From the IMG/VR virus record IMGVR_UViG_3300045988_133230: DNA of 60,892 bases, one strand, 5' to 3'. The notes beneath the pieces are model-generated. The model ran no database searches. It was given only the letters and a program-made list of their open reading frames with translations, and was not told the origin of the DNA. Below, piece after piece: positions 1 to 27,651 of this stretch (positions within the stretch are counted from its first letter, which is position 1; the number at the start of each line of letters is the position of its first letter). The position numbers and the translations under genes were made by a program. Source of the stretch: a virus. Its lineage: Duplodnaviria; Heunggongvirae; Uroviricota; Caudoviricetes.

Positions 1-33
1 TAACCTATCAGGGCTGCAGCAGAAAATGGTGGG

Positions 34-333
34 GTGGACTGCCAGCCGATAGCGGCTGGTTTCAAGGGACTTTTACCACACGGTAAAAAGTCACGTCTCC
101 AGTGTGATGATGATGAAGGCATCATGATAGACGGTTGTGTGGCTCGGTTGCGAAAGTATAAACCAGAGGAATATGAGCTGATCATAGCTCACTTTGTTAT
201 TGGTATCTCATTACGCACTATTGCCAAGAAGAGAAGATGTTCAGATGGCACAATTAGGAAGGAATTGCAGACTGCCATGGGGTTTATCAGCGGTGTAATA
301 ATAACTATAAACCCCATTATGGTAGTTAATTAA
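34..333 (+). CDS. Q-type late antiterminator, C-terminal part (N-terminus unresolved)
   Basis: Translation parallels the C-terminal two-thirds of the Q protein at 43092-43475 (AAGFKGL, CxxC, CSDG motifs). In-frame TAA at 1-3 and GTG at 34, so upstream part is missing or frameshifted. Confidence 0.55.
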   Translation: MDCQPIAAGFKGLLPHGKKSRLQCDDDEGIMIDGCVARLRKYKPEEYELIIAHFVIGISLRTIAKKRRCSDGTIRKELQTAMGFISGVIITINPIMVVN

Positions 334-4613: not shown

Positions 4614-5108
4614 ATGGCTGGAACGGCGGGGCGTTCCGGGCGTCGCCCCAAGCCAACGGCGCGCAAGGCGCTGGCCGGAAACCCCGGCAAGCGAGCCCTG
4701 AATAAAGATGAACCTGTTTTTACGCCCATCAAAGGTGTTGAGCCACCGGAGTGGTTCGCTGAAGAAGATCTCCCTCTCGCCACGATCATGTGGCAACTGA
4801 CAACCAAAGAACTCTGCGGTCAGGGCCTGCTGTGCGTGACTGACCTCGCGGTGCTTGAGCGGTGGTGCGTGGCCTACGAGTTCTGGCGACGTGCCGTGAA
4901 AAATATTGCCATACAGGGCAACACCATCACCGGTGCAATGGGCGGCAGGGTCAAAAATCCGGAGCTGACCGCCAAAAAAGAACAGGAGTCCGAGATGAGC
5001 AGCACGGGGGCAATGCTCGGACTCGACCCCAGCAGCCGCCAGCGTCTGATTGGCCTGGCGGGGCAGAAGAAAGCCACTAACCCGTTTCTGAAAATCATCG
5101 AGTCATGA
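4614..5108 (+). CDS. terminase small subunit (P27-family like)
   Basis: Basic N-terminus [14 protein letters not shown]; AGGAG RBS 9 nt upstream of ATG 4614; overlaps large subunit start. Confidence 0.7.
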
Positions 5109-6838
5109 GCCGGAAATCTTACCCCAACGTAAATGCTGCCAATCAGTATGCCCGTGATGTTGTGCGCGGAAAGATTGTGGCCTGCCAGTTTGTGATTCAG
5201 GCCTGCCAGCGCCATCTTGATGACCTGATGGCGGAAAAAAGTAAGTCGTTTCGTTACCGCTTCGACAAGGACCTGGCTGAACGGGCCGCCAAATTTATTC
5301 AGCTGTTGCCGCACACCAAGGGTGAGTGGGCATTCAAGAGGATGCCCATCACGCTGGAGCCGTGGCAGCTATTTGTGGTCTGCTGTGCGTTTGGCTGGGT
5401 CAATAAAGGGTCCCGGCTGCGCCGCTTCCGGGAGGTGTATACCGAAATCCCCCGTAAGAACGGCAAATCGGCAATCTCTGCCGGTGTTGCCCTGTATTGT
5501 TTTGCCTGTGATAACGAGTTTGGCGCGGAAGTGTATTCCGGTGCCACGACAGAGAAACAGGCGTGGGAAGTCTTTCGCCCGGCGCGACTGATGTGTAAAC
5601 GCACACCCATGCTGACGGAAGCGTTCGGGATTGAGGTTAACGCCTCAAACATGAATCGTCCGGAGGATGGCGCGCGGTTTGAACCGCTGATCGGTAACCC
5701 CGGTGATGGTTCATCACCCCACTGTGCGGTGGTGGATGAATATCACGAGCACGCCACCGATGCGCTTTACACCACGATGCTTACCGGGATGGGGGCGCGA
5801 CGTCAGCCACTGATGTGGGCCATTACTACTGCCGGGTACAACATTGAGGGGCCGTGCTACGACAAGCGACGGGAAGTTATCGAGATGCTCAACGGGTCGG
5901 TACCCAACGATGAACTGTTCGGGATCATCTATACCGTTGACGAAGGCGATGACTGGACCGACCCGCAGGTGCTGGAAAAAGCTAACCCGAATATTGGCGT
6001 GTCGGTTTATCGCGAATTTTTGTTAAGTCAGCAGCAGCGTGCGAAAAATAACGCCCGTCTGGCAAACGTCTTTAAAACAAAACACCTCAATATCTGGGTG
6101 TCGGCGCGTTCGGCGTATTTCAACCTGGTGAGCTGGCAGAGCTGCGAGGATAAATCACTGACTCTTGAGCAGTTCGAGGGGCAGCCGTGCATTCTGGCCT
6201 TTGACCTGGCGCGTAAGCTGGATATGAACAGCATGGCGCGACTTTATACCCGCGAGATTGACGGTAAAACGCATTACTACAGTGTGGCCCCGCGTTTCTG
6301 GGTACCGTATGACACGGTGTACAGCGTCGAGAAAAATGAAGATCGCCGGACAGCCGAACGCTTTCAGAAATGGGTGGAAATGGGCGTTCTGACCGTTACC
6401 GATGGTGCGGAGGTGGATTATCGCTACATCCTCGAGGAGGCCAAAGCGGCGAACAAAATCAGTCCGGTCAGTGAGTCACCCATCGACCCCTTCGGGGCGA
6501 CCGGGTTGTCACATGACCTTGCTGATGAAGACCTGAACCCCATCACTATCATTCAGAACTACACCAACATGTCCGACCCGATGAAAGAGCTGGAAGCGGC
6601 AATTGAATCGGGGCGCTTTCATCATGATGGCAATCCCATCATGACCTGGTGTATTGGCAACGTGGTCGGCAAAACCATTCCGGGTAACGATGATGTGGTG
6701 AAGCCCGTCAAAGAGCAGGCGGAAAACAAAATCGATGGTGCAGTTGCGCTGATTATGGCGGTTGGCAGAGCCATGCTGTACGAGAAAGAAGACACGCTGT
6801 CTGACCACATTGAGTCCTATGGGATCCGCTCGCTTTAA
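5105..6838 (+). CDS. terminase large subunit
   Basis: 577 aa; ATPase and nuclease regions typical of HK97-type large terminases; position between small subunit and portal. Confidence 0.85.
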
Positions 6839-6849
6839 CTGAGGTAATT

Positions 6850-7032
6850 ATGATCATGCTGATTCTCGCGCCTCTGGTGGGCGTGCTGGGGGCGCTTTTG
6901 CTGGCGTATGGTGCCTGGCTGATTTATCCCCCGGCGGGGTTTGTTGTTGCCGGGGCGTTGTGCCTGTTCTGGTCGTGGCTGGTGGCGCGATATCTCGACC
7001 GTACACAGCCGTCTGTCGGCGGAGGTAAATAG
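6850..7032 (+). CDS. small hydrophobic protein
   Basis: 60-aa ORF with two hydrophobic segments between terminase and portal. Confidence 0.35.
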
Positions 7033-8273
7033 TGTTCTTTTCGGGATTATTTCAACGAAAAAGTGACGCACCGGTGACCACGCCAGCAGAGCTGGCGGAT
7101 GCCATCGGGTTGTCCTACGACACCTATACCGGAAAGCAGATCAGCAGTCAGCGGGCCATGCGACTGACGGCGGTTTTTTCCTGCATCAGAGTGCTGGCAG
7201 AGTCGGTCGGGATGTTGCCCTGCAATCTGTATCACCTGAATGGCAGCCTGAAGCAGAGAGCCACCGGCGAACGTCTGCATAAGCTGATCTCCACGCATCC
7301 CAATGGCTATATGACGCCGCAGGAGTTCTGGGAGCTGGTGGTCACCTGTCTGTGCCTGAGGGGAAACTTTTACGCCTACAAAGTGAAAGCATTTGGCGAA
7401 GTGGCTGAACTGCTGCCCGTCGATCCTGGCTGTGTGGTACCGAAGCTTAACAGTAGCTGGGAGCCGGTCTATCAGGTCACATTCCCGGACGGCTCCACGG
7501 ATGTGCTGAGCCAGGAGGATATCTGGCATGTGCGCACGCTGACGCTGGACGGACTGGTGGGGCTGAATCCCATCGCCTATGCCCGCGAGGCAATATCGCT
7601 GGCGGCAGCGACTGAAGAGCACGGGGCCAGACTGTTCAGCAATGGTGCGGTGACGTCGGGTGTGTTGCGTACAGAGCAGACGCTGTCAGATCAGGCTTAT
7701 GAGCGCCTGAAGAAAGATTTTGAGGAGCGTCACACCGGGCTTGGCAATGCTCACCGCCCGATGATCCTTGAGATGGGGCTGGACTGGAAGTCGATGGCGC
7801 TGAACGCCGAGGACAGCCAGTTCCTGGAAACCCGCAAGTTTCAGCTTGAAGAAATCTGTCGTCTGTTCCGGGTACCGTTGCACATGGTGCAGAACACCGA
7901 TCGCGCCACCTTCAACAATATCGAAGAACTGGGGCTCGGATTTATCAACTATTCACTGGTGCCGTATCTGACCCGCATCGAACAGCGGATCAACACCGGA
8001 CTGGTACGAAAAAGTAAGCAGGGCGTTTATTACGCCAAATTTAACGCCGGGGCGTTACTGCGCGGGGATATGAAGTCCCGTTTTGAAGCCTACGCCACCG
8101 GGATCAACTGGGGAATTTACTCTCCCAATGACTGCCGCGACCTGGAAGATATGAATCCGCGTCCCGGTGGTGATGTCTATCTCACACCGATGAACATGAC
8201 CACGAAACCCTCCGATGGCAGTAAAGCCGGTAAGCAGAAGGATAACGCCAATGCAGACGAAACAACGTCTTGA
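7032..8273 (+). CDS. portal protein (HK97 family)
   Basis: 413 aa; gene order terminase-portal-protease-capsid; GTG start after GGAGG. Confidence 0.8.
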   Translation: MFFSGLFQRKSDAPVTTPAELADAIGLSYDTYTGKQISSQRAMRLTAVFSCIRVLAESVGMLPCNLYHLNGSLKQRATGERLHKLISTHPNGYMTPQEFWELVVTCLCLRGNFYAYKVKAFGEVAELLPVDPGCVVPKLNSSWEPVYQVTFPDGSTDVLSQEDIWHVRTLTLDGLVGLNPIAYAREAISLAAATEEHGARLFSNGAVTSGVLRTEQTLSDQAYERLKKDFEERHTGLGNAHRPMILEMGLDWKSMALNAEDSQFLETRKFQLEEICRLFRVPLHMVQNTDRATFNNIEELGLGFINYSLVPYLTRIEQRINTGLVRKSKQGVYYAKFNAGALLRGDMKSRFEAYATGINWGIYSPNDCRDLEDMNPRPGGDVYLTPMNMTTKPSDGSKAGKQKDNANADETTS

Positions 8274-8901
8274 TGTACCGCTGAGTCTGAAATCTGTCAG
8301 TGACTCCGGTGAGTTTGAAGGGTATGGCTCCGTCTTTGGTGTAAAGGACAGCCACGATGATGTGGTGATGTCCGGGGCATTTGCTGCTTCCCTGCGGGCG
8401 TGGAGTGACAGAAAAGCGTTACCTGCGCTGCTCTGGCAGCACCGCATGGATGAACCCATCGGTGTTTACACCGAAATGAAGGAAGACGATGTCGGGCTTT
8501 ACGTCAGGGGACGGTTGCTTATTGATGATGATCCCCTCGCAAAACGCGCACATGCACACATGAAGGCCGGTTCGTTAACCGGCCTTTCTATTGGGTACGT
8601 CCTGAAAGACTGGGAATACGACCGGAGCAAAGAAGCCTTTCTGTTGAAAGAAATCGACCTCTGGGAAGTCAGCCTAGTGACGTTCCCGTCTAACGACGAG
8701 GCGCGGATCAGCGACGTCAAGAACGCACTGGCCCGCGGGGAAATCCCCGAACAGAAAAAAATCGAAAGAGTCCTGCGTGATGTCGGACTCTCCCGTACCC
8801 AGGCCAAAGCATTCATGGCCGGGGGCTATGGCGCACTGTCCCTGCGCGACGCTGAGGATGTGGGCTCTGCACTGAATGCACTGAAAAATCTGAACTTCTA
8901 A
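8251..8901 (+). CDS. prohead protease (HK97 family)
   Basis: Follows portal, precedes capsid; alternative upstream ATG at 8215. Confidence 0.7.
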   Translation: MQTKQRLDVPLSLKSVSDSGEFEGYGSVFGVKDSHDDVVMSGAFAASLRAWSDRKALPALLWQHRMDEPIGVYTEMKEDDVGLYVRGRLLIDDDPLAKRAHAHMKAGSLTGLSIGYVLKDWEYDRSKEAFLLKEIDLWEVSLVTFPSNDEARISDVKNALARGEIPEQKKIERVLRDVGLSRTQAKAFMAGGYGALSLRDAEDVGSALNALKNLNF

Positions 8902-8915: not shown

Positions 8916-10120
8916 ATGGCGGTTGATATTAAAGATGTCGAACAGGTCGCGCAGGAGCTGCAGCAGAAGTTTGACGACTTCAAAGCAAAGAACGACAAGC
9001 GCGTGGATGCGATTGAGCAGGAAAAAGGCAAACTTGCCGGGCAGGTGGAAACCCTGAACGGGAAACTCAGCGAGCTGGAAAACCTCAAAAGCGATCTTGA
9101 AAAAGAGCTGCTTGAGCTGAAACGTCCGGCAGGTGGAGCGCAAAATAAACTGGCCACCGAGCATAAAGAGGCGTTTGTGGGCTTCCTGCGTAAAGGCCGT
9201 GAAGACGGTCTGCGCGATCTGGAGCGTAAGGCATTGCAGGTGGGCACCGATGAAGACGGTGGCTACGCCGTGCCGGAAGAACTGGATCGCAACATTCTTA
9301 ACCTGCTGAAAGATGAAGTGGTGATGCGTCAGGAAGCCACGGTGATCACCGTTGGCGGTTCCGACTACAAAAAACTGGTGAATCTGGGCGGTACGGCTTC
9401 CGGATGGGTGGGGGAAACGGATACGCGATCCCAGACTGCCACCTCCAGACTGGAGCTGATTGAACCTCTCATGGGGGAAATCTACGGCAACCCGCAGGCT
9501 ACCCAGAAAATGCTGGACGATGCCTTCTTCAACGTGGAGGCCTGGATCAACAGCGAGCTGGCAACCGAATTTGCCGAACAGGAAGAAATTGCCTTTACCT
9601 CAGGCGATGGTACCAAGAAGCCGAAGGGTTCCTGGCGTATGAATCCACCGATGAAACCGATAAGGTCCGGGCGTTCGGCAAACTTCAGCATATTGTATCC
9701 GGCGAAGCGACGGGGGTGACCGCAGACGCCATTATCAAACTGATTTACACGCTGCGAAAGGCACACCGCACCGGCGCGAAGTTCATGATGAACAACAACA
9801 GCCTGTTTGCCATCCGTTTGCTGAAAGACACCGAGGGTAACTATCTGTGGCGTCCGGGGCTGGAACTGGGGCAGCCGTCCTCTCTGGCGGGTTACGGTAT
9901 CGCTGAAAACGAACAGATGCCGGATATCGCCGCTGATGCGAAAGCCATTGCATTTGGTAACTTCAAACGGGGTTACACCATCGTTGACCGTATCGGCACC
10001 CGCATTCTGCGCGACCCGTACACCAATAAACCGTTTGTCGGTTTTTATACCACCAAGCGCACCGGCGGGATGCTGGTCGATTCGCAGGCCATCAAACTGC
10101 TGAAGATTGCAGCGGCGTAA
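8916..10120 (+). pseudogene. major capsid protein (HK97 fold) interrupted by a 1-bp frameshift near 9629-9631
   Basis: ORFs 8916-9719 and 9716-10120 form one capsid gene; reading continues in the +1 frame through ggtt/cctgg where ggtttcctgg would keep frame (KKPKGFLAYESTDETDK...). Confidence 0.7.
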
Positions 10121-10168: not shown

Positions 10169-10369
10169 ATGATCCTGAAACAAGATCTGAAATGGTCACC
10201 GGACGGTATGCGTGTTGAGGTCATTCGGGCCGGTGAGTATGACGACGGGGCGCTTCCTGCCCGGGTGCAGGAGATTGCACTTCAGGCCGGGTTAGCAGAG
10301 CGCGGAACCAGTGCAAAAAGCAGTAAAGCGACAAAAGAGAAAAAAGCCACGACCAGTAAAGAGGGCTGA
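10169..10369 (+). CDS. hypothetical small head-module protein
   Basis: 66-aa ORF with RBS between capsid and connector genes. Confidence 0.4.
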   Translation: MILKQDLKWSPDGMRVEVIRAGEYDDGALPARVQEIALQAGLAERGTSAKSSKATKEKKATTSKEG

Positions 10370-10371
10370 GT

Positions 10372-10695
10372 ATGCTTCTGACAATGGAAGAGATTAAAGC
10401 CCAACTCCGGCTGGATGAGGATTTCGATGCTGATGACCGCCATCTGCAACTGCTGGCCTGTGCGGCGCAAAAGCGGACGGAAACGTATCTGAACCGGAAG
10501 CTCTATGCACCGGATGAAACCATTCCGGACAGCGACCCGGACGGACTACACCTGCCGGATGATATTCGTCTGGGGATGCTGATGCTTATCAGCCATTTTT
10601 ACGAAAACCGCTCGTCGGTTACGGAAGTGGAGAAACTCGACATGCCGCAGAGTTTTGGCTGGCTTGTTGGCCCGTACAGGTACTTTCCGCAATGA
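10372..10695 (+). CDS. head-tail connector (gp6-like)
   Basis: 107 aa; position and sequence character typical of head-tail connector proteins. Confidence 0.65.
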   Translation: MLLTMEEIKAQLRLDEDFDADDRHLQLLACAAQKRTETYLNRKLYAPDETIPDSDPDGLHLPDDIRLGMLMLISHFYENRSSVTEVEKLDMPQSFGWLVGPYRYFPQ

Positions 10696-11102
10696 AAATT
10701 CGTCAGGCGCAGACCAGCGCAACCTACATTCTGCCGGACCCCGGCGAACTGAATAAACGCGTCCTGATCCGCCAGCGGGTGGATATGCCCGCGGATAACT
10801 TTGGCGTGGAGCCTCAATACCCGGTTGCGTTCCGGGCATGGGCGAAGGTTGTCCAGACCAGTGCCACCACCTGGCAGGAAACCGCGCAGACCGGAGACGC
10901 CATCACCCATTACATCACCATTCGCTACCGCCGGGGGATCACCGCTGATTATGAGGTGGTCTGCGGTGACAGTGTGTACCGGGTGAAACGTCAGCGCGAT
11001 CTGAACGGTGCGCGGCGCTTTCTGCTGCTGGAGTGTACGGAGCTGGGCGAATTTACGCAGAGTCACGGAGGCAGCAATGGCGACTCCCTTTTTTCACGTT
11101 GA
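10692..11102 (+). CDS. head-tail adaptor / head closure protein
   Basis: 136 aa, overlapping start/stop with neighbours in head-tail joining block. Confidence 0.6.
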   Translation: MKIRQAQTSATYILPDPGELNKRVLIRQRVDMPADNFGVEPQYPVAFRAWAKVVQTSATTWQETAQTGDAITHYITIRYRRGITADYEVVCGDSVYRVKRQRDLNGARRFLLLECTELGEFTQSHGGSNGDSLFSR

Positions 11103-11583
11103 TGTTCAGCAGCCCGCGGAGATGCGCTTTAACCGCGCCCGTGTCCGGCGGGCGTTTGTCACGATTGGGCAGCGTCATATGCGTGATGCTCGTCGGCTGG
11201 TGATGCGCCGTGCGCGGTCGGCACCGGGTGAAAACCCCGGTTATCAGACCGGACGCCTGGCTCGTTCGATTGGTTACATGGTGCCGGGAGCCAGTAAAAA
11301 GCGAGCCGGTTTTATGACACGCATTGCCCCTAACCAGCGCAACGGGAAGGGGAACCGGATGATCTCTGGTGACTTCTATCCGGCGTTTCTGTTTTTTGGT
11401 GTCCGGGGAGGAGCAAAACGTCGTCGTAGTCATCATCGTGGTGCATCCGGTGGCAGCGGCTGGCGGCTGGCTCCACGTAATAACTTTATGGTGGAAACTC
11501 TTGAAAAGAACCGCAGCTGGACACGCTATTTTCTGGCGCGGGAATTACGTAAATCACTGAAGCCGGAGCGACGACGCAGATGA
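11077..11583 (+). CDS. tail completion protein (HK97 gp10-like)
   Basis: Start placed at ATG 11077 preceded by GGAGG; basic C-terminus. Confidence 0.55.
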   Translation: MATPFFHVDVQQPAEMRFNRARVRRAFVTIGQRHMRDARRLVMRRARSAPGENPGYQTGRLARSIGYMVPGASKKRAGFMTRIAPNQRNGKGNRMISGDFYPAFLFFGVRGGAKRRRSHHRGASGGSGWRLAPRNNFMVETLEKNRSWTRYFLARELRKSLKPERRRR

Positions 11584-12140
11584 AACTGACGCCTGTTATT
11601 GCTGCGCTGCGTGCCCGCTGCCCGTATTTTGAAAACCGGGTGGCAGGCGCGGCACAGTTCAAAAATCTGCCGGAGGTCGGAAAGCTGAGACTCCCGGCGG
11701 CGTATGTGGTACCGGGTGATGACTCTCCGGGAGAAAACAAAAGCCAGACCGACTACTGGCAGGAGCTGAAAGAGGGCTTCTCCGTGGTTGTCATACTGAG
11801 TAACGGGCGTGATGAGCGCGGTCAGTTTGCCTCGTATGATGTGGTGGACGATGTCCGGCAGATGCTCTTTAAGGCTCTGCTGGGCTGGAACCCGGAAGCG
11901 TGCGGTAACCCGATTACCTATGACGGCGGCACGCTGCTGGATCTGAATCGTCATGAGCTGATTTATCAGTTCGATTTTTCGATCATCAGCGAGCTGACCG
12001 AAGACGATACCCGCCAGCAGGATGATCTGAACAGTCTGGATGAACTGCAAACGCTGGCGATTGATGTTGATTATCTCGAGCCCGGTAACGGGCCTGACGG
12101 CGATATCGAACATCACACCGAAATAACCCTTCCTTCCTGA
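11580..12140 (+). CDS. tail-associated protein
   Basis: 186 aa between head-tail joining genes and sheath. Confidence 0.55.
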   Translation: MKLTPVIAALRARCPYFENRVAGAAQFKNLPEVGKLRLPAAYVVPGDDSPGENKSQTDYWQELKEGFSVVVILSNGRDERGQFASYDVVDDVRQMLFKALLGWNPEACGNPITYDGGTLLDLNRHELIYQFDFSIISELTEDDTRQQDDLNSLDELQTLAIDVDYLEPGNGPDGDIEHHTEITLPS

Positions 12141-12148
12141 GGATCCTC

Positions 12149-12319
12149 ATGTTTGTCAAACCTGTTAAAGGGCGGTCAGTTCCTGACCCTGCCCGCGGCG
12201 ACCTTTTGCCCGCCGAAGGGCGAAATGTTGACGAGAACAACTACTGGCTGCGCCGTGAAGCAGCGGGTGATATCCGGCGCGTGAATAAAAAGGTGAATAC
12301 CGATGACGATAAGCTTTAA
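12149..12319 (+). CDS. small conserved protein preceding tail sheath
   Basis: 56-aa ORF (MFVKPVKGRSVPDP...) found by me, not in ORF track; GAGGA RBS; overlaps sheath start. Confidence 0.45.
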   Translation: MFVKPVKGRSVPDPARGDLLPAEGRNVDENNYWLRREAAGDIRRVNKKVNTDDDKL

Positions 12320-13799
12320 CACCATTCCGTCGAATACGCTGGTTCCGTTGTTTTATGCGGAAATGGATAACCAGGCGGCGAATACTGCACAGGACAGCGG
12401 GGCATCGTTGCTGATTGGTCACGCCAATAACGGTGCAGAGATTGTTGCCAACAGTCTGGTGTTGATGCCGTCGGCAGACTATGCACGCCAGATTTGTGGT
12501 GCGGGAAGTCAGCTGGCGCGTATGGTCGAGGCTTATCGCCAGACCGACCCGTTTGGCGAGCTGTATGTGATTGCCGTTCCGGAAGCCACAGGCGCGGCGG
12601 CAACGGTTACGCTGACGGTGACCGGAGCAGCAACCGAAACCGGCACGGTGAATGTTTATGTGGGACGTACCCGCGTGCAGGCACCGGTGACTAACGGCGA
12701 TAACGTCACGACGATTGCCAGCAGTATCCAGGATGCCATTAATGCCGTTCCGGCCCTGCCGTTTACGGCCTCATCTTCGGCAGGCGTGGTCACACTGACC
12801 GCGCGTCATAAGGGGCTTTGCGGGAATGAAATTCCTGTCAGCCTCAATTACTACGGCTTCGGTGGGGGCGAAGTGCTGCCAGCGGGCGTACAGATTGCCG
12901 TGGCGACGGGGACCGCCGGAACGGGCGCTCCGGTTCTCACCGGTGCGGTGGCTGCAATGGCGGATGAGCCGTTTGATTATATCGGTCTGCCGTTCAACGA
13001 CACGGCCTCCGTTAACACGCTGGTGACCGAGATGAACGATACCAGCGGTCGCTGGAGCTATGCGCGTCAGCTGTATGGTCATGTGTATACGGCAAAGATC
13101 GGCACGCTGTCAGAACTGGTGACCGCAGGTGACCAGTTTAACCAGCAGCACATCACCCTGGCGGGGTACGAAAAAGAGACCCAGACGCCTGCCGACGAGC
13201 TGGCGGCAAGCCGTACCGCCCGCGCAGCGGTGTTTATCCGCAACGATCCGGCACGTCCCACGCAGACCGGTGAGCTGGTGGGTATGTTGCCTGCGCCGAA
13301 GGGGAAACGGTTCACGATGACCGAACAACAGACCCTGCTGTCTCATGGCGTGGCAACGGCGTATGTCGAAAGCGGGGTACTGCGCATTCAGCGTGATGTC
13401 ACCACGTACAGGAAAAACGCTTACGGGGTTGCGGATAACAGCTACCTCGACAGCGAGACGCTGCATACCAGCGCGTATGTACTGCGCAAACTGAAATCCG
13501 TCATTACCAGTAAGTACGGGCGTCACAAGCTTGCCAGTGACGGTACCCGCTTTGGTCCCGGTCAGGCGATTGTCACCCCGGCGGTGATCAAAGGGGAACT
13601 GCTGGCAACCTACCGTCAGCTCGAGCGTGCGGGGATCGTGGAAAACTACGAACTGTTTAAGCAGTACCTGGTTGTGGAGCGTGATGCCAGCGATCCGAAC
13701 CGCCTGAACACGCTGTTCCCGCCTGACTATGTTAACCAGTTGCGTGTCTTTGCCGTGGTTAACCAGTTCCGTCTTCAGTATTCAGAGGAGTCTGCATAA
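12303..13799 (+). CDS. contractile tail sheath protein (Mu-type)
   Basis: 498 aa, followed by tube, chaperone with frameshift, tape measure: Mu-like tail order. Confidence 0.8.
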   Translation: MTISFNTIPSNTLVPLFYAEMDNQAANTAQDSGASLLIGHANNGAEIVANSLVLMPSADYARQICGAGSQLARMVEAYRQTDPFGELYVIAVPEATGAAATVTLTVTGAATETGTVNVYVGRTRVQAPVTNGDNVTTIASSIQDAINAVPALPFTASSSAGVVTLTARHKGLCGNEIPVSLNYYGFGGGEVLPAGVQIAVATGTAGTGAPVLTGAVAAMADEPFDYIGLPFNDTASVNTLVTEMNDTSGRWSYARQLYGHVYTAKIGTLSELVTAGDQFNQQHITLAGYEKETQTPADELAASRTARAAVFIRNDPARPTQTGELVGMLPAPKGKRFTMTEQQTLLSHGVATAYVESGVLRIQRDVTTYRKNAYGVADNSYLDSETLHTSAYVLRKLKSVITSKYGRHKLASDGTRFGPGQAIVTPAVIKGELLATYRQLERAGIVENYELFKQYLVVERDASDPNRLNTLFPPDYVNQLRVFAVVNQFRLQYSEESA

Positions 13800-14155
13800 T
13801 GGCCCGTATCGGGGGAACCTGTTATTTCAAAATTGACGGTCAGCAGCTATCGCTGACCGGCGGCATTGAGGTGCCCATGAACAGGACGGTCAATGATGAC
13901 ATCATCGGCCTGGACGGTTCAGTGGACCGCAAGGAAACTCACCGTGCGCCCTATGTCAAAGGGACCTTCAAGGTGCCGAAGAATTTTCCGGTGAGCAAAA
14001 TCACCTCGTCTGATGAGATGACCATCACTGCCGAGCTGGCGAACGGTCAGGTCTATGTACTGTCGTCTGCCTGGCTGCACGGCGAAGCGAACCATAATGC
14101 CGAAGAAGGCACGGTCGATCTTGAGTTCCACGGTGAAGAAGGGGATTACCAGTAA
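13799..14155 (+). CDS. tail tube protein
   Basis: 118 aa directly after sheath. Confidence 0.75.
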   Translation: MARIGGTCYFKIDGQQLSLTGGIEVPMNRTVNDDIIGLDGSVDRKETHRAPYVKGTFKVPKNFPVSKITSSDEMTITAELANGQVYVLSSAWLHGEANHNAEEGTVDLEFHGEEGDYQ

Positions 14156-14424
14156 TGAAAGAGCTTGAGTTAAAGAAACCGATTACCGCTCATGGCGAGA
14201 CACTCTCCGTACTGGAGTTTGATGAGCCCACCGGGAAAGATGTCCGCGAGCTGGGGTATCCCTACCAGATGAATCAGGATGAGTCCGTCAGACTTCTGGC
14301 GCATGTGGTATCGAAATACATTGTGCGGCTGGCGAAAGTGCCGCAAAACTCTGTCGACCAGATGTCTCCGGCAGACCTGAATGCAGCGGCGTGGCTTGTG
14401 GCTGGTTTTTTCCTCCAGGCCTGA
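14155..14424 (+). CDS. tail assembly chaperone
   Basis: Short ORF ending at a TTTTTTC slippery heptamer, upstream of tape measure. Confidence 0.6.
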   Translation: MKELELKKPITAHGETLSVLEFDEPTGKDVRELGYPYQMNQDESVRLLAHVVSKYIVRLAKVPQNSVDQMSPADLNAAAWLVAGFFLQA

Positions 14425-14573
14425 CGGCTGAATACCTCACTGATCGCTTCTTTGACTGCGCCAGCTACTGGCGCATTAATCCCTTCGAATTGCTGAATAT
14501 GCCGATCAGTGAAATTCCCTTACTGGTCAGTCAGGCAAACAGGATAGAGCAGGAGAAACGCACACATGGCTGA
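14391..14573 (+). CDS. tail assembly chaperone -1 frameshift extension
   Basis: ORF in the -1 frame relative to 14155-14424, reachable by slip at T_TTT_TTC 14406-14412. Confidence 0.5.
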   Translation: MACGWFFPPGLTAEYLTDRFFDCASYWRINPFELLNMPISEIPLLVSQANRIEQEKRTHG

Positions 14574-16401
14574 ATTTGAGCTTAAGGCGTTGATCACCGG
14601 TGTCGACAGGCTTTCTCCCGCGCTGTCGAAAATGCAAAAGAAAATCCGGGGATTTAAACGCCAGGCGGAAGAAGCGTCACAGGGTGGGCTGGCGCTTGGT
14701 GGCGGACTGGCTGCGGGTCTGACGCTTTCCCTGAAATCTTATGCCGATCAGGAAAACGCCGCCACCGGGCTGAAAGTTGCCATGATGGATGCGAACGGTG
14801 AGGTCGGAAAGCGCTTTCAGGACATCAATAAACTGGCTATTGGCCTGGGTAACCAGCTACCCGGTACAACGGCTGATTTCCAGAACATGATGCAGATGCT
14901 GGTGCGTCAGGGGATCCCGGCAGAAAACATTCTGGGTGGTGTGGGTAAAGCGACAGCCTATCTTGCGGTACAACTGAAAAAAACACCGGAAGCGGCTGCT
15001 GAGTTTGCTGCAAAGATGCAGGATGCTACCGGAACGGCGTCAGAAGACATGATGGGGCTGTTCGACACTATCCAGAAGGCGTTTTATCTGGGCGTTGACG
15101 ATACCAACATGTTGTCCTTCTTCACTAAAACCAGTTCTGTTCTGAAGATGGTGAACAAGGATGGTCTTCAGGCTGCACAGAGCCTTGCCCCCATCAGCGT
15201 CATGATGGATCAGATGGGGATGAACGGGGAGTCGGCAGGTAATGCCCTGCGAAAAGTTATCCAGTCCGGATTAAGCGTTAAGAAAATCAGGGACGTTAAT
15301 AAAGTTATGGCCCGCCAGAAACTCGGAGTGCAGCTCGATTTTACTGACGGCAAAGGGAGTTTTGGCGGTCTTGATAACATGTTCAGGCAACTGGCAAAGC
15401 TGCGAAAACTGACCGACGTTAAGCGAACAGGTGTACTTAAGGCAATATTTGGTGATGATGCCGAAACCCTTCAGGTGGTCAATGCTCTGATCGATAAAGG
15501 GAAGGATGGTTACGATCAGATCCAGCAGAAGATGAATAAACAGGCCAGCCTGAATAAACGTGTTCAGGCACAGCTTGGTACGCTGTCCAACCTGTGGGAG
15601 GCAATGACGGGGACCGCAACTAACGGTCTTGCAGCTATTGGCGGCGCATTTTCTGGTGACGCTAAAAATATCACGCAATGGCTGGGGGAGTTGGGGGAGA
15701 AATTCACGAAGTTTGCGGATGAAAATCCCCGGGTTATTCGCGGCGTCGTCGGGCTTGCTGCCGGTCTTGCGATTCTGAAACTGGGATTGATGGGCGTTGG
15801 CGGTGCCATCAGTATTGTCAGCAGGATCATGTCGATGACGCCGATTGGCATGATTGCGACGGCGATAGCCCTGGCTGCGGGATTAATTATCACTAACTGG
15901 GATGTTGTCGGACCTTATTTTAAGAAACTCTGGGAAACCATTGGTCCTTATTTTGAGGCCGGCTGGGAACTCCTTAAGAAAGTTTTTGCCTGGTCGCCGC
16001 TGGGGATGGTGATCAATAACTGGGGGCCGGTTGTTAAGTGGTTTCAGGATATGTGGGACAAGCTGAAGCCAATTATTGAGTGGTTTACCGACAGTTCCGG
16101 TGACACGGTCGATGCCATTAACTCTGCGCAGTGGGGCGCGGGTGCTTATGATGCTTATGGGACGGGAATACCGGCGCGGGGATACACACCTTATCCGGCG
16201 GTGGATCCGGCTCAGTCAAACAACGCCTCCGATGCCACAGGCCCGAATCCCTTCATGATTAACAAAGCTTCTGCGCCAAAAGTTGATGGTGAGATCAAGG
16301 TCTCTTTTGTGAATTCGCCTCCGGGTATGCGGGTTATGGAAACGCGATCCAGCGGTTTTGATGTCAGCCATGATGTTGGCTATACGCGCTTTGGCAGGTA
16401 A
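14566..16401 (+). CDS. tail tape measure protein
   Basis: 611 aa, Ala/Gly-rich helical protein with central hydrophobic segment. Confidence 0.85.
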   Translation: MAEFELKALITGVDRLSPALSKMQKKIRGFKRQAEEASQGGLALGGGLAAGLTLSLKSYADQENAATGLKVAMMDANGEVGKRFQDINKLAIGLGNQLPGTTADFQNMMQMLVRQGIPAENILGGVGKATAYLAVQLKKTPEAAAEFAAKMQDATGTASEDMMGLFDTIQKAFYLGVDDTNMLSFFTKTSSVLKMVNKDGLQAAQSLAPISVMMDQMGMNGESAGNALRKVIQSGLSVKKIRDVNKVMARQKLGVQLDFTDGKGSFGGLDNMFRQLAKLRKLTDVKRTGVLKAIFGDDAETLQVVNALIDKGKDGYDQIQQKMNKQASLNKRVQAQLGTLSNLWEAMTGTATNGLAAIGGAFSGDAKNITQWLGELGEKFTKFADENPRVIRGVVGLAAGLAILKLGLMGVGGAISIVSRIMSMTPIGMIATAIALAAGLIITNWDVVGPYFKKLWETIGPYFEAGWELLKKVFAWSPLGMVINNWGPVVKWFQDMWDKLKPIIEWFTDSSGDTVDAINSAQWGAGAYDAYGTGIPARGYTPYPAVDPAQSNNASDATGPNPFMINKASAPKVDGEIKVSFVNSPPGMRVMETRSSGFDVSHDVGYTRFGR

Positions 16402-16461
16402 TGAAAAATTAATCTGTTAATGAGTCCCACTCCGGTGGGATTTTTTATGTACGGAGTTTAT

Positions 16462-17790
16462 ATGACGTGGAAAGACAGACTTCAGGACGCGTCATTTCGC
16501 GGTGTGCCGTTTAAGGTTGAAGAAGAAAGTGCGGGAACCGGTCGTCGTGTGGAAACGCACGAATACCCGAACTGCGACAAACCCTATACCGAAGACCTGG
16601 GGAAAATCACTTTCCGCCCGTCCATCACAGCTTATGTGGTGGGAGATGACTGCTTTGACCAGCGCGATCGCCTGATTGACGCGCTGAATAAACCCGGTCC
16701 CGGCACGCTTGTCCATCCGACTTACGGTGAGCTGAAAGTCTGTGTTGACGGAGAAGTTCGGGTCAGCACATCGAAGAGTGAAGGGCGTATTGTCCGCTTT
16801 GACCTGAAGTTTGTCGAAGCGGGAGAACTCTCTTACCCCACTTCAGGTGCGGCGACGGCGCAGACGCTGATGTCATCCTGTTCTGCACTGGATGACTGCA
16901 TCAGTGACAGTTTCAGTGGTTTCAGTATCGATGGCGTGGCGGATTTTGTGCAGAACGACGTCGTCGGTAATGCCAGCACAATGCTTGGGTATGTTTCTGA
17001 TGCGATGAAAGTGGTGGATTCTGCCGTATCGGATGCCGCCAGACTGTTGCAGGGGGATATCTCGGTACTTCTGCCTCCGCCATCGTCAGGCAAAAACTTC
17101 GTTGAGCAGGTGCAAAAAATGTGGCGTACCGGGAAACGCCTTTATGGTAACGCCAGCGACCTGGTCACCATGATCAAAACGCTTTCCGGTGTCAGCCTCG
17201 GCAGCGATCTGCAACCGCGCGGCGTCTGGAAAACGGACAGTAAAACCACCGCCACGGCGACGCAGCAGCGTAACGTGGTTGCCAGCACCCTTCGTACGAC
17301 CGCAATCAGCGAAGCGGCGTATGCCGTCACCCGATTGCCTGCGCCAACAACTTCCGCGGTGATGCAGAATTCCGCAGTGGGGCAGGCAACAACACCCGCG
17401 CAGAGCACTGGCTGGCCTTCCGTCACGCATCCGGCACTGAACAATGCACCGGCGGTGAAAAACACGGTTGACCTGCCGACGTGGGAAGAACTGACTGACA
17501 TTCGCGACACACTGAATACGGCAATTGATAAGGAGTTGTCCCGTACAACCAGCGATGCGCTGTTTCTGGCGCTGCGCCGGGTGAAAGCAGATCTGAATGC
17601 GGATATCAACACGCGCCTTGAACAGTCTGCACGGATCATTCAGCGCACACCGGATGAGGTTTTACCCGCGCTGGTGCTGGCGGCGACCTGGTTTGATAAC
17701 GCGGCGCGTGACGCGGACATTATCCGGCGTAATGCCATTACGCATCCCGGCTTTGTGCCGGTGATCCCTCTGAAGGTGCCAGTGCAATGA
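16462..17790 (+). CDS. DNA circularisation protein (Mu gp43-like)
   Basis: MTWKDRLQDASFRGVPF N-terminus typical of this family; start set at ATG 16462. Confidence 0.7.
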   Translation: MTWKDRLQDASFRGVPFKVEEESAGTGRRVETHEYPNCDKPYTEDLGKITFRPSITAYVVGDDCFDQRDRLIDALNKPGPGTLVHPTYGELKVCVDGEVRVSTSKSEGRIVRFDLKFVEAGELSYPTSGAATAQTLMSSCSALDDCISDSFSGFSIDGVADFVQNDVVGNASTMLGYVSDAMKVVDSAVSDAARLLQGDISVLLPPPSSGKNFVEQVQKMWRTGKRLYGNASDLVTMIKTLSGVSLGSDLQPRGVWKTDSKTTATATQQRNVVASTLRTTAISEAAYAVTRLPAPTTSAVMQNSAVGQATTPAQSTGWPSVTHPALNNAPAVKNTVDLPTWEELTDIRDTLNTAIDKELSRTTSDALFLALRRVKADLNADINTRLEQSARIIQRTPDEVLPALVLAATWFDNAARDADIIRRNAITHPGFVPVIPLKVPVQ

Positions 17791-18866
17791 ACGATAACGT
17801 CACGCTACGGGTAAATGGCCGGGAGTGGAATGGCTGGACATCGGTGCGCATCGGTGCCGGTATTGAACGGCTGGCGCGGGATTTCAGCGTGGAGATCACC
17901 CGCCAGTGGCCGGGAGATGAGGGTATCACCACGCTTCAGCCGCGCATTAAAAATGGTTCAAAAGTGGAAGTGCTGATTGGTTATGAGCTGGTGATCACCG
18001 GCTGGGTGGAGGCGACCCCCGTTCGTTACGATGCCCGTTCGGTCAGCACCGGTATTGCCGGACGTAGTCTGACTGCTGACCTGATTGACTGTGCAGCCGA
18101 ACCGACACAGTTTAACGGACGATCGCTGGTACAGATTGCGCAGGCGCTTGCTGCGCCTTTCGGCATTGAGGTGGTGAACAGCGATGCGCCGTCGGGTGTT
18201 ATTCCGGATGTCCAGCCTGATCACGGTGAAACGGTGATTGAGGTGATCAACAAAATACTCGGTCAGCAGCAGGCGCTGGCTTATGACGACCCGCACGGCA
18301 GGCTGGTGATTGGTGGTATTGGCTCAACGCGGGCACATACCGCGCTGGTACTTGGGGAAAACATCCTTTCCTGTGATACGGAGAAGAGTATCCGGGATCG
18401 GTTTTCAGTTTACCAGGTGGCGGGGCAGCGTGCCGGAAACGACGATGATTTCGGTGAGGCCACCACCACCGCGCTGCGGGCCCGCACAGAGGACGCATTT
18501 ATTGCCCGTTACCGTCCGATGTATATCAGGCAGACAGGGCAGGCTACGGGGGCAGGCTGTATTGCCCGTGCGGACTTTGAAGCCCGGCAACGGGCGGCGC
18601 GGACGGATGAAACCACCTATGTGGTGCAGGGCTGGCGACAGGGTAACGGTACGCTGTGGCAACCCAACCAGCGGGTGATTGTCTTTGATCCGGTCTGTGG
18701 TTTTGACAATACCGAACTGCTTGTTTCGGAAGTCACGTTTACTCAGGACCAGAACGGCACCCTGACGGAAATCCGTGTCGGCCCGCCTGATGCTTATCTG
18801 CCTGAACCTGAAGACCCCGGCGCGCGGAAAAAGAAAAAAGCCAGAGTACAGGAGGACCCGTTCTGA
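17787..18866 (+). CDS. baseplate hub / tail protein (Mu gpP-like)
   Basis: 359 aa in baseplate block. Confidence 0.65.
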   Translation: MNDNVTLRVNGREWNGWTSVRIGAGIERLARDFSVEITRQWPGDEGITTLQPRIKNGSKVEVLIGYELVITGWVEATPVRYDARSVSTGIAGRSLTADLIDCAAEPTQFNGRSLVQIAQALAAPFGIEVVNSDAPSGVIPDVQPDHGETVIEVINKILGQQQALAYDDPHGRLVIGGIGSTRAHTALVLGENILSCDTEKSIRDRFSVYQVAGQRAGNDDDFGEATTTALRARTEDAFIARYRPMYIRQTGQATGAGCIARADFEARQRAARTDETTYVVQGWRQGNGTLWQPNQRVIVFDPVCGFDNTELLVSEVTFTQDQNGTLTEIRVGPPDAYLPEPEDPGARKKKKARVQEDPF

Positions 18867-19414
18867 TGAGGACGATTGAAGCCATGCAGCGACAACTTCT
18901 CGGCCTGATTGGGCGGGCAGTGGTGAAAAGCATCAGTGCCGCCACGAAATGTCAGACCGTGGATGTGTCCCTGATTGCCGGTGAACCCAAAGCCGGGGTT
19001 GAACATCTTGAACCCTACGGTTTTACCGCAAGGGCAAACAGCGGTGCGGAAGCGGTGGTGTTGTTTCCGGATGGCGACCGTTCTCATGCGGTGGTTGTTA
19101 CGGTGTCGGACCGGCGCTACCGCCTGAAAGGGCTGCAGACGGGTGAGGTGGCTGTCTATGACGATCAGGGGCAGTCTGTGACGCTGACCCGGGAGGGGAT
19201 CGTGGTGGACGGTGCAGGTAAAACGATCACGTTTCGCAATGCGCCCAGAGCACGTTTTGAAATGGACCTGGAAGTGACCGGACAGGTGAAAGACCTGTGC
19301 GACTCCGGCGGCACCACCATGTCAGCGATGCGGCTTGCCTATAACGGCCATCGTCACAGAGAGAACGGTCAGGGCAGTAACACCGACAAACCGGATAAAG
19401 CGATGGAGGCATGA
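18866..19414 (+). CDS. baseplate assembly protein V (spike)
   Basis: 182 aa, position upstream of W/J-like genes. Confidence 0.65.
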   Translation: MRTIEAMQRQLLGLIGRAVVKSISAATKCQTVDVSLIAGEPKAGVEHLEPYGFTARANSGAEAVVLFPDGDRSHAVVVTVSDRRYRLKGLQTGEVAVYDDQGQSVTLTREGIVVDGAGKTITFRNAPRARFEMDLEVTGQVKDLCDSGGTTMSAMRLAYNGHRHRENGQGSNTDKPDKAMEA

Positions 19415-19839
19415 TGGAACTGTGGCTGACGGTGAACGGTAAACGCACCTGCGCCAGCGCACCGCTGGATCCGCTGACCCGCGCCGTGGTGATTTCCCTG
19501 TTCACCTGGCGGCGGGCGGAGCCTGATGACAATGCCGACGTCCCGATGGGATGGTGGGGGGATACCTGGCCTGCGGTACAGAATGACCGTTACGGCTCCC
19601 GGCTGTGGCTGCTTCAGCGCGGCAAACTGACCAATCAGCTGGTGCAGACGGTAAGGGGGTATATCCGCGAATGCCTGCAATGGATGATTGATGACGGTGT
19701 GGTGTCCCGTATTGATCTGGATATCCGCCGCACCGGGATTAATGAACTGGGTAACAGTATCACTCTCTGGCGTCGTGACGGACCGGTAATGATTTCTTTT
19801 GATGATCTGTGGAGTGCGATAACGCATGGCGGACAGTGA
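19411..19839 (+). CDS. baseplate protein (gp46 / W-like)
   Basis: 142 aa between V and J homologs. Confidence 0.6.
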   Translation: MMELWLTVNGKRTCASAPLDPLTRAVVISLFTWRRAEPDDNADVPMGWWGDTWPAVQNDRYGSRLWLLQRGKLTNQLVQTVRGYIRECLQWMIDDGVVSRIDLDIRRTGINELGNSITLWRRDGPVMISFDDLWSAITHGGQ

Positions 19840-20884
19840 ATTTCAGCGCCCGACGCTGGCAGAAAATATCAGTATGCTCCGTAACGATTTATTCGCCAGG
19901 CTGGACGTCAGCGACACGCTCCGGCGCATGGATGAAGACGTGCGGGCAAAGGTGTATGCGGCGGCGCTGCATACGGTTTACGGTTACATCGATTATCTGG
20001 CAATGAACATGCTGCCTGACCTGTGCGATGAGTCCTGGCTGGCGCGACATGCTGCGATGAAACGGTGTCCGCGCAAGGGGGCCACGGCTGCCAGCGGGTA
20101 TATGCGCTGGGAAGGTGTCAGCGATGGCCTGAAGGTGACCGCCGGGAGTGTTATTCAGCGCGATGACCTGGTTCAGTACACGGCAACTGCCGATGCAACC
20201 AGCGCCGGTGGTGTCCTGCGCGTGCCGATCGCCTGCTCAAGTGCAGGAGCGGTCGGTAACGCTGACGACGGTACGTCATTAATCCTGGTCACGCCGGTGA
20301 ATGGTCTGCCGTCTTCCGGCGTGGCAGACACTCTGACAGGTGGATTTGATACTGAAGAGCTGGAAACGTGGCGCGCCCGCGTCATTGAGCGGTATTACGG
20401 GACGCCTCAGGGCGGGGCTGACGGGGACTATGTAGTCTGGGCTAAAGAAGTGCCCGGCATTACCCGTGCATGGACATACCGCCACTGGATGGGAACGGGG
20501 ACTGTCGGTGTGATGATTGCCAGCAGTGACCTGATTAATCCCATTCCGGAAGAATCAACGGAAACGGCGGCAAGACAACACATTGAGCCACTGGCCCCGG
20601 TGGCAGGCTCTGATTTGTATGTATTCAGGCCGGTGGCGCATAAAGTGGATTTTCATATCCGCGTGACGCCGGACACACCGGAAATACGGGCTGCCATCAC
20701 CGCCGAGTTGCGTTCGTTCCTGCTGCGTGATGGTTATCCGCAGGGAGAACTGAAGGTGTCGCGTATCAGTGAGGCGATTTCCGGTGCGAACGGGGAATAC
20801 AGCCATCAGTTGCTTGCACCGGCGGACAATATCTCCATTGCAAAAAATGAACTGGCGGTACTGGGGACGATTTCATGGACGTGA
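19826..20884 (+). CDS. baseplate J-like protein
   Basis: 352 aa; corresponds to the e14 jayE region. Confidence 0.75.
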
Positions 20885-21459
20885 CAAACGATGATTACAT
20901 CCATCTGTTGTCGGCACTGTTGCCCCCCGGTCCGGCGTGGTCAGCCAGCGATCCGGCGATTGCCGGTGCGGCACCGTCATTAACCCGCGTTCATCAGCGT
21001 GCGGATGCCCTGATGCGGGAGCTGGATCCGCGCACCACCACCGAACTGATAAATCGCTGGGAGCGTCTGTGCGGCCTGCCGGATGAATGTATTCCCGCAG
21101 GGACACAGACCCTTCGCCAGCGTCAGCAACGACTGGATGCGAAGGTTAACCTGGCGGGCGGCATCAATGAGGATTTTTACCTTGCACAGCTTGCTGCCCT
21201 GGGCAGACCAGACGCCACCATCACGCGATACGACAAAAGCACGTTCACCTGCTCATCGGCCTGTACTGACGCGGTGAATGCGCCGGAATGGCGGTATTAC
21301 TGGCAGGTCGACATGCCAGCCGCCACCAACACCACCTGGATGACATGTGGCGATCCCTGTGATTCCGCACTGCGTATCTGGGGCGACACCGTTGTCGAGT
21401 GTGTGCTTAACAAACTCTGCCCGTCGCATACCTACGTAATTTTTAAATATCCGGAGTAA
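20875..21459 (+). CDS. tail protein (YmfQ / Mu gp48-like)
   Basis: 194 aa preceding tail fibre. Confidence 0.65.
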
Positions 21460-21462: not shown

Positions 21463-22047
21463 ATGCATCGTATAGACACGAAAACCGCGCAGAAGGATAA
21501 GTTCGGCGCGGGTAAGAACGGTTTTACCCGTGGTAACCCCCAGACCGGCACACCTGCCACCGATCTGGATGATGACTACTTTGACATGTTGCAGGAGGAA
21601 CTTTGCAGTGTTGTGGAGGCATCCGGTGCCAGCCTGGAGAAGGGGCGGCATGACCAGCTGCTTACAGCGCTTCGTGCGCTGCTGTTAAGCCGCAAGAATC
21701 CGTTTGGCGATATCAAATCGGATGGCACGGTGAAAACGGCTCTCGAAAACCTTGGTTTGGGAGAAGGTGCTAACTGGGTTATGTTACCTGGAGGAATGAT
21801 AATTCAGCGTGTTTATCTTGGATTTCCTATTGGCACTAATGTAAGACATATAACTTTCCCCCGGTCGTTTACAACAACGAACTATTCCATCTCAATTAAC
21901 TGGAATGATATCGGTACTGTAACAACTGAAACACAATCACCAGCAAATGTGGCGGTTGTTCATCAAACAAAATCATTAACAGGGGCCAGCATCTGGCAGG
22001 CAGGTCCCGGGGGATTTAATGTGGACATTATAGCGGTGGGGTATTGA
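21463..22047 (+). CDS. tail fibre protein (constant N-terminus plus variable tip)
   Basis: 194 aa; contains the gix-like crossover site within ENLGLGEGA coding sequence. Confidence 0.7.
21740..21765. promoter_or_regulatory. candidate Hin/Gin-family crossover site (12-2-12)
   Basis: CTCTCGAAAACC-TT-GGTTTGGGAGAA; both half-sites fit the TTxTCxAAAACC pattern of gix/hix sites. Confidence 0.5.
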
Positions 22048-22048
22048 T

Positions 22049-22477
22049 ATGTACGTATGGAGCGCTAAAGCAAATGGCTTTTTCCCCATATCGGAGAAAG
22101 AAAAATTTGAGGCATCAGGTCTGTGGCCTGATGATGGTGTAATAGTCAGTGAGGAAGAACATAAAAAGTTATTTATGGATATTCCACCAGGAAAACAGAT
22201 TGGAACACTGAATGGAAAACCAGCACTGATAGATATTCCTCAGCCGACCAAAAAGGAATTAATAGCTATTGCTGAAGTTAAAAAATCCCAATTACGGGAA
22301 AAGGCTGACAGTGAAATATCCTGGCGTCAGGATGCTGTTGATGCTGATATCGCAACTGATGAAGAAGCTACAACTCTCACCCAATGGAAGAAATACCGTG
22401 TGCTGCTGATGCGTGTTGATACGTCAACAGCACCCGATATTGAATGGCCTACGCCTCCGGCAGTTCAGGCCAGATGA
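22049..22477 (+). CDS. tail fibre assembly protein
   Basis: 142 aa with C-terminal TSTAPDIEWP motif shared with the convergent copy. Confidence 0.7.
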   Translation: MYVWSAKANGFFPISEKEKFEASGLWPDDGVIVSEEEHKKLFMDIPPGKQIGTLNGKPALIDIPQPTKKELIAIAEVKKSQLREKADSEISWRQDAVDADIATDEEATTLTQWKKYRVLLMRVDTSTAPDIEWPTPPAVQAR

Positions 22478-24387: not shown

Positions 24388-24586
24388 AGAAACCTCCAGC
24401 CGTATGTCAGACTGAAAGTATAGGGCAGTTAGAAAAAGTGGTGCACACCGTTAAAGATTTAAAAGGAGCATGTAAGGTAAATCGGAATGATGGTTTTGTG
24501 AATTGATGAATTCCGAAAGTGAAAAAGATACTTAATCATTGTGTGCTAGCGATACGGGGGCAACATTTGACGGGGTTTTTCCCCTG

Positions 24587-24708
24587 TAATTCCCCATTGC
24601 TTCCCCGTTCAGAAAACAGGCAAAAAAACCAGCCGTAACAGGCTGGTTCTTCGAGGATTTTTGGTCGGCACGAGAGGATTTGAACCTCCGCCCCCCGACA
24701 CCCCATAG
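24587..24708. repeat. 122-bp direct repeat copy 1 (tRNA 3' fragment plus terminator)
   Basis: About 97 percent identical to 25757-25879 by manual alignment. Confidence 0.85.
24662..24708 (-). other. tRNA-Pro-like 3' fragment (att-type remnant, not a complete gene)
   Basis: Reverse complement reads ...GGAGGTTCAAATCCTCTCGTGCCGACCA: T-arm, G72, A73 discriminator, CCA; no D-arm or 5' acceptor strand present. Confidence 0.65.
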
Positions 24709-24784
24709 TGTCGTGCTAATATTCTGATGGCCTATATGCGTCTACAGTAAGTTGATAGCATCATTCGTCGGTCGCTTCGTAGTC

Positions 24785-27042: not shown

Positions 27043-27486
27043 TGAATAGTTCCTTTATATTCTTGACTTGATTGTTTGTTTGCCAATTTAAGCCAAAGAC
27101 ACACGACTTTAATTGGGCTTGAATCATAGTTATATGTAATCTATTAAGCAAACACTTTTCATTAATAGCATGAGATAACGCTCAATTCTTTATTTTCCGG
27201 GAGTGTGTAACTTCATATCCACCTCTCACTCACAGCGTACGTTATTGGCGAAAAATTTAGTTAAGCCATTGATAGTTTGTGAAAACACGCATGATTTAAA
27301 ATCCCTTTGCCGTGAAGGGGCTGATAGGTACAGGCACTTGTTTTTGCCCTCTAAAACGGTTATCAAAACCAAAAAACATACATTGATAATCAATAGGTTA
27401 GGGGAAAGATAAAAGCCAGTTGATTTACAATAAAATTATAGGATTATTTTTATTTATCATGCGGTTGTATATGAACCATCTAACTA

Positions 27487-27651
27487 CTGCTGCGCCATAT
27501 GGGCTGGACTGAAGCCGCAGACCTGATTGTTAAAGGTATGGAAGGCGCGATCAACGCGAAAACCGTAACCTATGACTTCGAACGTCTGATGGAAGGCGCT
27601 AAACTGCTGAAATGTTCAGAGTTTGGTGACGCGATCATCAAGAACATGTAA
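27487..27651 (+). pseudogene. icd: icd 3' fragment (duplicated attachment segment, icdC-like)
   Basis: Encodes ...[53 protein letters not shown], the C-terminus of isocitrate dehydrogenase; upstream sequence is unrelated and AT-rich. Confidence 0.85.

Follow-up and report, generated by a model that had tools for sequence, protein, structure and literature searches.

The ST64B prophage of Salmonella Typhimurium, present in strains SL1344, 14028S and D23580, is defective through a single frameshift in the tail gene SB21; the frameshift is common to related strains and inherited within the lineage, and no infectious particles are formed (PMC3853940, PMC7067206). The Shigella flexneri phage SfI is inducible and plaque-forming, with heads of 55 nm, and its morphogenesis genes have been described as homologous to those of e14 (PMC3636060).

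We compared these and other described systems with an element found in a stretch of DNA of 60,892 nucleotides, referred to here as the window (that is, the whole stretch that was analysed). It is highly probable that the major capsid gene of this e14-family prophage was inactivated by a genuine deletion of one nucleotide, which would be recent and vertically inherited. ST64B is a member of the same family of phages, with 91.5% DNA identity to the window in the capsid gene, and it shares with the window element the pattern of one frameshift in one essential morphogenesis gene within an otherwise complete late operon. The two differ in the gene that is broken and in its effect: ST64B is broken in a tail gene and would make tailless heads, whereas in the window the capsid gene is affected and no heads would be expected. 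They differ also in host and attachment site, ST64B residing in Salmonella at a tRNA gene and the window element in E. coli at icd.

The prophage and its relatives

The element is a prophage of the e14/SfI/SfII/SfV/ST64B family, with a P27-type terminase, an HK97-type head and a Mu-like contractile tail, and its host is a gut E. coli. Across positions 1–25000 of the window, 69–76% aligns at 96.6–97.6% identity to SfII, SfI and vB_EcoM-689R6, and the late operon is collinear with, and highly identical to, those of induced members of the family. With SfI, SfII, SfIV and SfV of Shigella flexneri, and with the induced E. coli phages vB_EcoM-689R6 and phi467, the element has in common the order of the late genes and 96–98% DNA identity from the terminase to the baseplate; these phages have HK97-type heads and contractile tails, as is predicted for the window element. 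All of them differ from it in having an uninterrupted capsid gene of 1206 nt, which in SfI and SfII is a single gene for 401 amino acids, and the uninterrupted SfI gene is 98% identical to the window's. The integration site of the Shigella phages is moreover tRNA-thrW, and gtr O-antigen genes are part of their cargo; the window element, by contrast, ends in an icd' fragment and has other cargo.

With e14 of E. coli K-12 the element shares the attachment site, with its icd duplication, and family genes, namely ymfR, ymfQ, tfaE and an stfE-type fibre cassette. e14 is a heavily deleted remnant, whereas in the window element the late operon is complete but for one point lesion, so that it would stand at the very beginning of the decay that e14 has undergone. 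As in HK97, the capsid gene adjoins those for the portal and the S78 prohead protease; unlike other members of the HK97-fold family (PF05065, 6TB9), its domain is split between two frames.

The late operon was compared protein by protein with that of SfII. Of the 23 SfII late proteins between TerS and the gp48-like baseplate protein, both included, the capsid is the one exception: the other 22 have gap-free matches in the window, at 92–100% amino acid identity; 21 of these matches are full length and the remaining one, Neck1, covers residues 1–164 of 168. The initial annotation had described the neighbouring genes as apparently intact, and these 22 gap-free matches agree with it. On the plus strand, tblastn against SfII places the small terminase of P27 type at 4614–5108, the large terminase at 5105–6838, a YmfR-like protein of 60 aa at 6850–7032, the portal (PF04860) at 7032–8273 and the S78 prohead protease of the HK97 family (PF04586) at 8251–8901, so that TerS, TerL, portal, protease and capsid follow one another in the order of a head module. 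These upstream head and packaging genes (4614..8901) are full-length and gap-free relative to the SfII proteins, at 98–100% identity. The downstream morphogenesis genes, at 10169..21459 on the plus strand, are likewise intact, at 92–100% amino acid identity to SfII, and comprise the head-tail connector and closure proteins, the tail terminator, the sheath (12303–13799), the tube, the tail assembly chaperone, the tape measure, the DNA circulation protein and a Mu-like baseplate up to the YmfQ/gp48-like protein. The contig starts inside the Q antiterminator region (window 52–318), with the early genes for integrase, repressor and replication lying beyond its edge, and the statement of intactness covers the late region. 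A second Q-like gene, quuD of the neighbouring prophage (43092–43472), is probably the cause of the assembly break at window 1–45.

Downstream of the baseplate genes, the fibre region at 21463–23524 has a layout like that of an invertible host-range cassette: a tail fibre (21463–22047) and a fibre assembly protein (22049–22477) are encoded on the plus strand, and an inverted fibre assembly protein (22449–23042) and an inverted fibre C-terminus (23042–23524) on the minus strand. A pinE-type invertase, such as stands at the matching position in E. coli 82.0311, gave no tblastn match anywhere in the window. At the cargo site that follows (23719–27042, minus strand) are encoded a SRAP peptidase (23719–24387; PF02586, E = 7e-51), a 271-aa protein with no match in Pfam or PADLOC (24785–25600), and a 322-aa protein whose N-terminus resembles the PtuB-type HNH nucleases of Septu (26074–27042; PADLOC, E = 1e-23); no PtuA ATPase adjoins the PtuB-like ORF. 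E. coli 82.0311 has at this site instead pinE, a LEM-3-like GIY-YIG protein and an mcrA fragment.

On its right the prophage ends at the icd' fragment (27484..27648, plus strand), a C-terminal duplication of isocitrate dehydrogenase which marks the e14-type attachment site. Right after this fragment a second prophage stands in tandem (window 27484–60892). It is lambdoid and DLP12-like, starts with its integrase (27765–28907, minus strand), and carries exo/bet/gam, emrE, ybcK and quuD, an nmpC/ompC-type porin gene (43667–44746) and genes for lysis; it also has its own head module of lambda type, with a separate capsid gene (53449–54471). Its lysozyme gene (45550–46047) is intact, whereas the annotation of E. 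coli 82.0311 has it frameshifted, and every gene checked in the lambdoid prophage is full length.

A capsid gene in two pieces

The capsid gene lies on the plus strand at 8916–10120, where it spans 1205 nt in place of the 1206 nt of the intact gene, and it is read in two frames. The 5' part, ORF1 (8916..9719, plus strand; 267 aa), was recovered from the ORF list, by profile match and by tblastn; its first 238 residues are native and comprise a scaffolding-like coiled coil at the N-terminus, followed by half of the HK97 fold, after which 29 residues are read out of frame (SWRMNPPMKPIRSGRSANFSILYPAKRRG) up to a TGA stop at 9717–9719. The 3' part (9626..10120, plus strand) encodes residues 239–401 of the intact protein and the stop. 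Its frame is open from 9464 and native from 9626, and passes from codon phase 0 to phase 2 relative to ORF1; the continuation, first described as lying in the +1 frame, is therefore in the -1 frame. Gene callers render the 3' part as a 134-aa ORF starting with GTG (9716–10120).

Both pieces score above the curated cut-off (24.2 bits) of the Pfam profile PF05065 (Phage_capsid): residues 115–238 of ORF1 match positions 1–126 of 280 (E = 1.4e-30, 107 bits) and the second frame matches positions 132–280 of 280 (E = 4.4e-42, 145 bits), while the repaired or intact capsid protein matches positions 1–280 in one piece (265 bits, E = 8.8e-79). Because the two pieces match complementary halves of a profile that the intact ortholog matches as a whole, a chance pattern of ORFs is excluded. 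No single ORF encodes the whole domain, which is divided between the frames at profile positions 126/132, and tblastn with the SfII major capsid protein finds residues 1–238 (100%) and 234–401 in different frames of the window. The closest solved structure is the HK97-fold capsid protein of the Rhodobacter capsulatus gene transfer agent (6TB9, E = 1e-75), and since this alignment spans residues 31–400, the lost C-terminal part belongs to the fold. The split of the capsid gene is confirmed as real and falls mid-domain. The identification of the gene as an HK97-type major capsid gene, made in the initial annotation, is upheld by the complementary PF05065 halves and the 6TB9 match, and on its sequence the locus is a pseudogene of the HK97-fold family, a member predicted to be non-working.

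As reference for the lesion we used E. coli strain C1 (NZ_CP010116), the best match among complete E. coli genomes, whose capsid gene is identical to the window's at 1205 of 1205 aligned bases and has one base in addition (1206 nt). A 1-bp frameshift had been proposed within 9600–9720, and one base is indeed missing there relative to C1. The lost base is one A of a run of three: the window has AA at 9624..9625 (plus strand) where every intact ortholog has AAA (capsid nt 707–709), giving CCGAAGGG in place of the intact CCGAAAGGG. In the alignment against C1 the intact gene runs CCGAAAGGGTTCC and the window CCGAAGGGTTCC, and the intact reading AAG AAG CCG AAA GGG TTC CTG (K K P K G F L) becomes AAGAAGCCGAAGGGTTCCTG in the window. 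The comparison with orthologous capsid genes, which had been suggested as a check, thus separates intact orthologs of 1206 nt with AAA from a window copy of 1205 nt with AA. All 26 of 26 phage records, along with the listed E. coli matches, span 1206 nt, one more than the 1205 of the window copy; among the listed matches, each one of full length bears a single major capsid or head annotation.

The base and its site had originally been read otherwise, as a missing T in ggtt/cctgg at 9629–9631. Inserting a T there does yield the roughly 400-aa protein that had been foreseen, in fact one of 401 aa, and it is the same protein as that obtained by inserting an A. As the two insertions give identical proteins, site and base are inseparable from the sequence alone; the orthologous DNA, however, is recreated by the A insertion only, which restores in silico the 1206-nt DNA of C1 exactly. 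The missing T was dropped for this reason, and the lesion is placed about 5 nt upstream, at 9624–9625, with A as the lost base. The string ggtttcctgg, which had been expected as the intact reading, is present in no ortholog, the intact allele being ccgaaagggttcctgg.

Interruption of this gene is not peculiar to the window. The collection has the identical 134-aa C-terminal ORF indexed in 166 blocks, and an identical 134-aa product is recorded for E. coli HVH 188 (EQT64656.1). Ten of the places were examined, and the lesions upstream of the ORF are not the same in them. Three of these (L007, L012 and L014) have lost one G from a G5 run at capsid nt 558–562 and by coincidence also have a first ORF of 267 aa, so that an ORF of this length was rejected as a marker of the window lesion; another (L010) has gained one G in the same run. 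In L008, L011 and L016 there is no indel, and we infer that their short first ORFs (263, 209 and 209 aa, respectively) result from substitutions making stop codons, while L013 has an internal deletion in the capsid gene. L015 (GCA_974496745.1, 2890–2940) carries a 95.9%-identical allele which has lost one base at the CCGAAAGGG spot and reads CCAAAGGG; its capsid gene has two 1-nt losses, the second of which shifts the frame within a run of five A (A5), the genes next to it are split as well, and it represents either an independent event at the same site or an error-rich assembly. The G5 run (GGGGG, window 9473–9477), which is intact here and was hit independently in L007, L012 and L014, whose alleles are different, and in L010, looks like the main indel hotspot of the capsid gene or of its sequencing. 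Repeated and unrelated capsid knockouts of this kind are the ordinary picture of prophage decay.

Recurrence of the deletion and its possible readings

The window is a SPAdes-style contig (NODE_106 of ENA ERZ1745613) at 27x coverage, in which the base call is backed indirectly, by agreement among assemblies, and the lesion lies in a short homopolymer context (AAAGGG) of a gene otherwise identical to the intact allele. On these grounds it could be supposed that the genome truly reads AAA and that an error in base calling or in the consensus removed one A, a reading we regard as highly doubtful, since the same deletion recurs under other accessions and pipelines. A 312-kb scaffold (L002, ENA ERZ28568594) has it, with no gaps over 19.7 kb and three mismatches; these stand at window positions 28, 33 and 42, all at the contig edge, and with its differences so confined the scaffold could have been assembled anew from the sample that gave the window. 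The deletion is present as well in L003, the Logan assembly of SRR31283963, with no gaps over 16.8 kb and one SNP of its own at window position 10626, and an IMG/VR contig from metagenome 3300039322 (L064) is 100% identical to the window over 1317 nt, a stretch in which the deletion lies. Indel noise as a general trait of the contig was ruled out: over 17–20 kb there is no other indel relative to L002 or L003, and the lysozyme gene of the neighbouring lambdoid prophage is intact. The exact truncated product of 267 aa is encoded on 10 contigs in the public collection. Assembly of the same locus in its intact form is also common. The deletion junction was found in none of 5,426 complete E. coli genomes, which places the source strain outside that set, whereas the local sequence is present in 149 records (147 genomes), all below 99% identity to the 70-nt query, and the listed complete-genome matches to the lesion region have 71 nt each against 70 in the window. 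No JGI metagenome contig has the deletion junction, whereas the control with the intact junction returned 47 contigs; among IMG/VR contigs at least 120 have the intact junction and one has that of the deletion. A run of three bases is not an error-prone context for short reads, and a loss in such a run, seen in several assemblies of which one is distinguishable by a SNP, is unlike a random consensus error. The homopolymer sequencing error that the initial annotation had offered as an alternative is left unsupported by the identical deletion in L002, L003 and L064, and an assembly error would appear very unlikely.

A real deletion need not silence the gene if the two ORFs were joined into a full-length capsid protein by a programmed -1 ribosomal frameshift or other recoding: the frames overlap from 9464 to 9716, where a -1 slip would fuse both, and certain structural genes of phages do use programmed frameshifts. 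The chance of this is nonetheless negligible. A heptamer scan found no in-frame slippery heptamer (X XXY YYZ) anywhere in ORF1, and no stimulatory RNA structure was seen downstream, in the 99 nt of 9632–9730, whose folding energy of -25.8 kcal/mol indicates less stability than the mean of -29.6 for shuffled sequence (z = +1.13), 179 of 200 shuffles being equally or more stable; a programmed frameshift was discarded on these two negative results. Nor is the two-frame arrangement conserved among orthologs, since the phage records and the listed E. coli matches have one frame, as do all lesion-free orthologs examined, including that of the inducible SfI, and the split is limited to copies 100% identical to the window or 1–3 bases apart. 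A shell moreover requires hundreds of subunits, a demand that would lie beyond background slippage. The lesion could also have been put to use, the truncated fragment being kept as a poison for the capsid assembly of superinfecting relatives, or the locked-in prophage being kept for its cargo. This we consider a remote prospect, as is its more specific form, in which the 267-aa fragment would be expressed as a dominant-negative decoy against e14/SfV-like capsid assembly and which we deem most improbable; if it were true, capsid truncation would be a selected route to phage defence and not neutral decay. Persistence of the lesion across several samples, the cargo ORFs at the prophage end (SRAP, the PtuB-like HNH protein and the 271-aa protein) and the independent inactivation of the capsid gene in many other assemblies are all compatible with such a use. 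There is, however, no sign of selection, for with zero substitutions relative to the intact allele the event is too recent to judge, and varied independent lesions are expected from neutral decay across very many assemblies; recurrent independent truncations fit a decoy, but they fit neutral decay equally well.

Age, inheritance and consequences of the deletion

The preferred reading is therefore a genuine deletion that inactivates the capsid gene. The absence of any substitution relative to the intact allele, together with the intact state of the neighbouring late genes, indicates that the deletion took place very recently. By itself, a phage that lacks a capsid would be unable to spread horizontally, and the lesion-bearing copies found, all of them 100% identical or 1–3 bases different, fit vertical inheritance within one E. 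coli clone. With one knockout, its other late genes intact and inheritance in a lineage, the element has the features of a single-lesion defective prophage of the ST64B type. The other alternative offered in the initial annotation, a defective prophage with intact neighbours, accordingly gains support from the recurrence of the deletion and from the state of the late genes, as far as sequence can tell.

With the loss of one A from the A3 run, translation would yield 238 native residues and then 29 aberrant ones before it stops. The protein would lack its last 163 residues (PF05065 positions 132–280), and neither a capsid shell nor a procapsid would be expected. On induction the other late genes might still be expressed, infectious particles would not be expected to appear, and we infer a loss of particle production. 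The element would be locked into vertical inheritance as a passenger. Rescue might come from reversion, from recombination with a related phage, or from a compensating insertion, as a +1 insertion within 9464–9716 could restore the frame in the window prophage; the ST64B prophage can reportedly be resuscitated, going by the title of a 2004 study by Figueroa-Bossi and Bossi. Complementation in trans by an intact related capsid gene elsewhere in the genome could also occur, and some E. coli carry up to four related capsid gene copies per genome.

The lesion would represent ordinary prophage decay at its first step, with little importance beyond annotation. There, one capsid pseudogene is due where public gene calls now give two capsid-family genes, and although the prophage looks complete, a score of probably non-infectious is appropriate, a point of relevance to prediction tools in which gene content decides the rating of intactness. 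The deletion junction may serve as a handy clonal marker for the host E. coli lineage in gut metagenomes, and the locus would offer a clean natural example of the first step by which a complete e14-family prophage turns into a remnant like the e14 of K-12.
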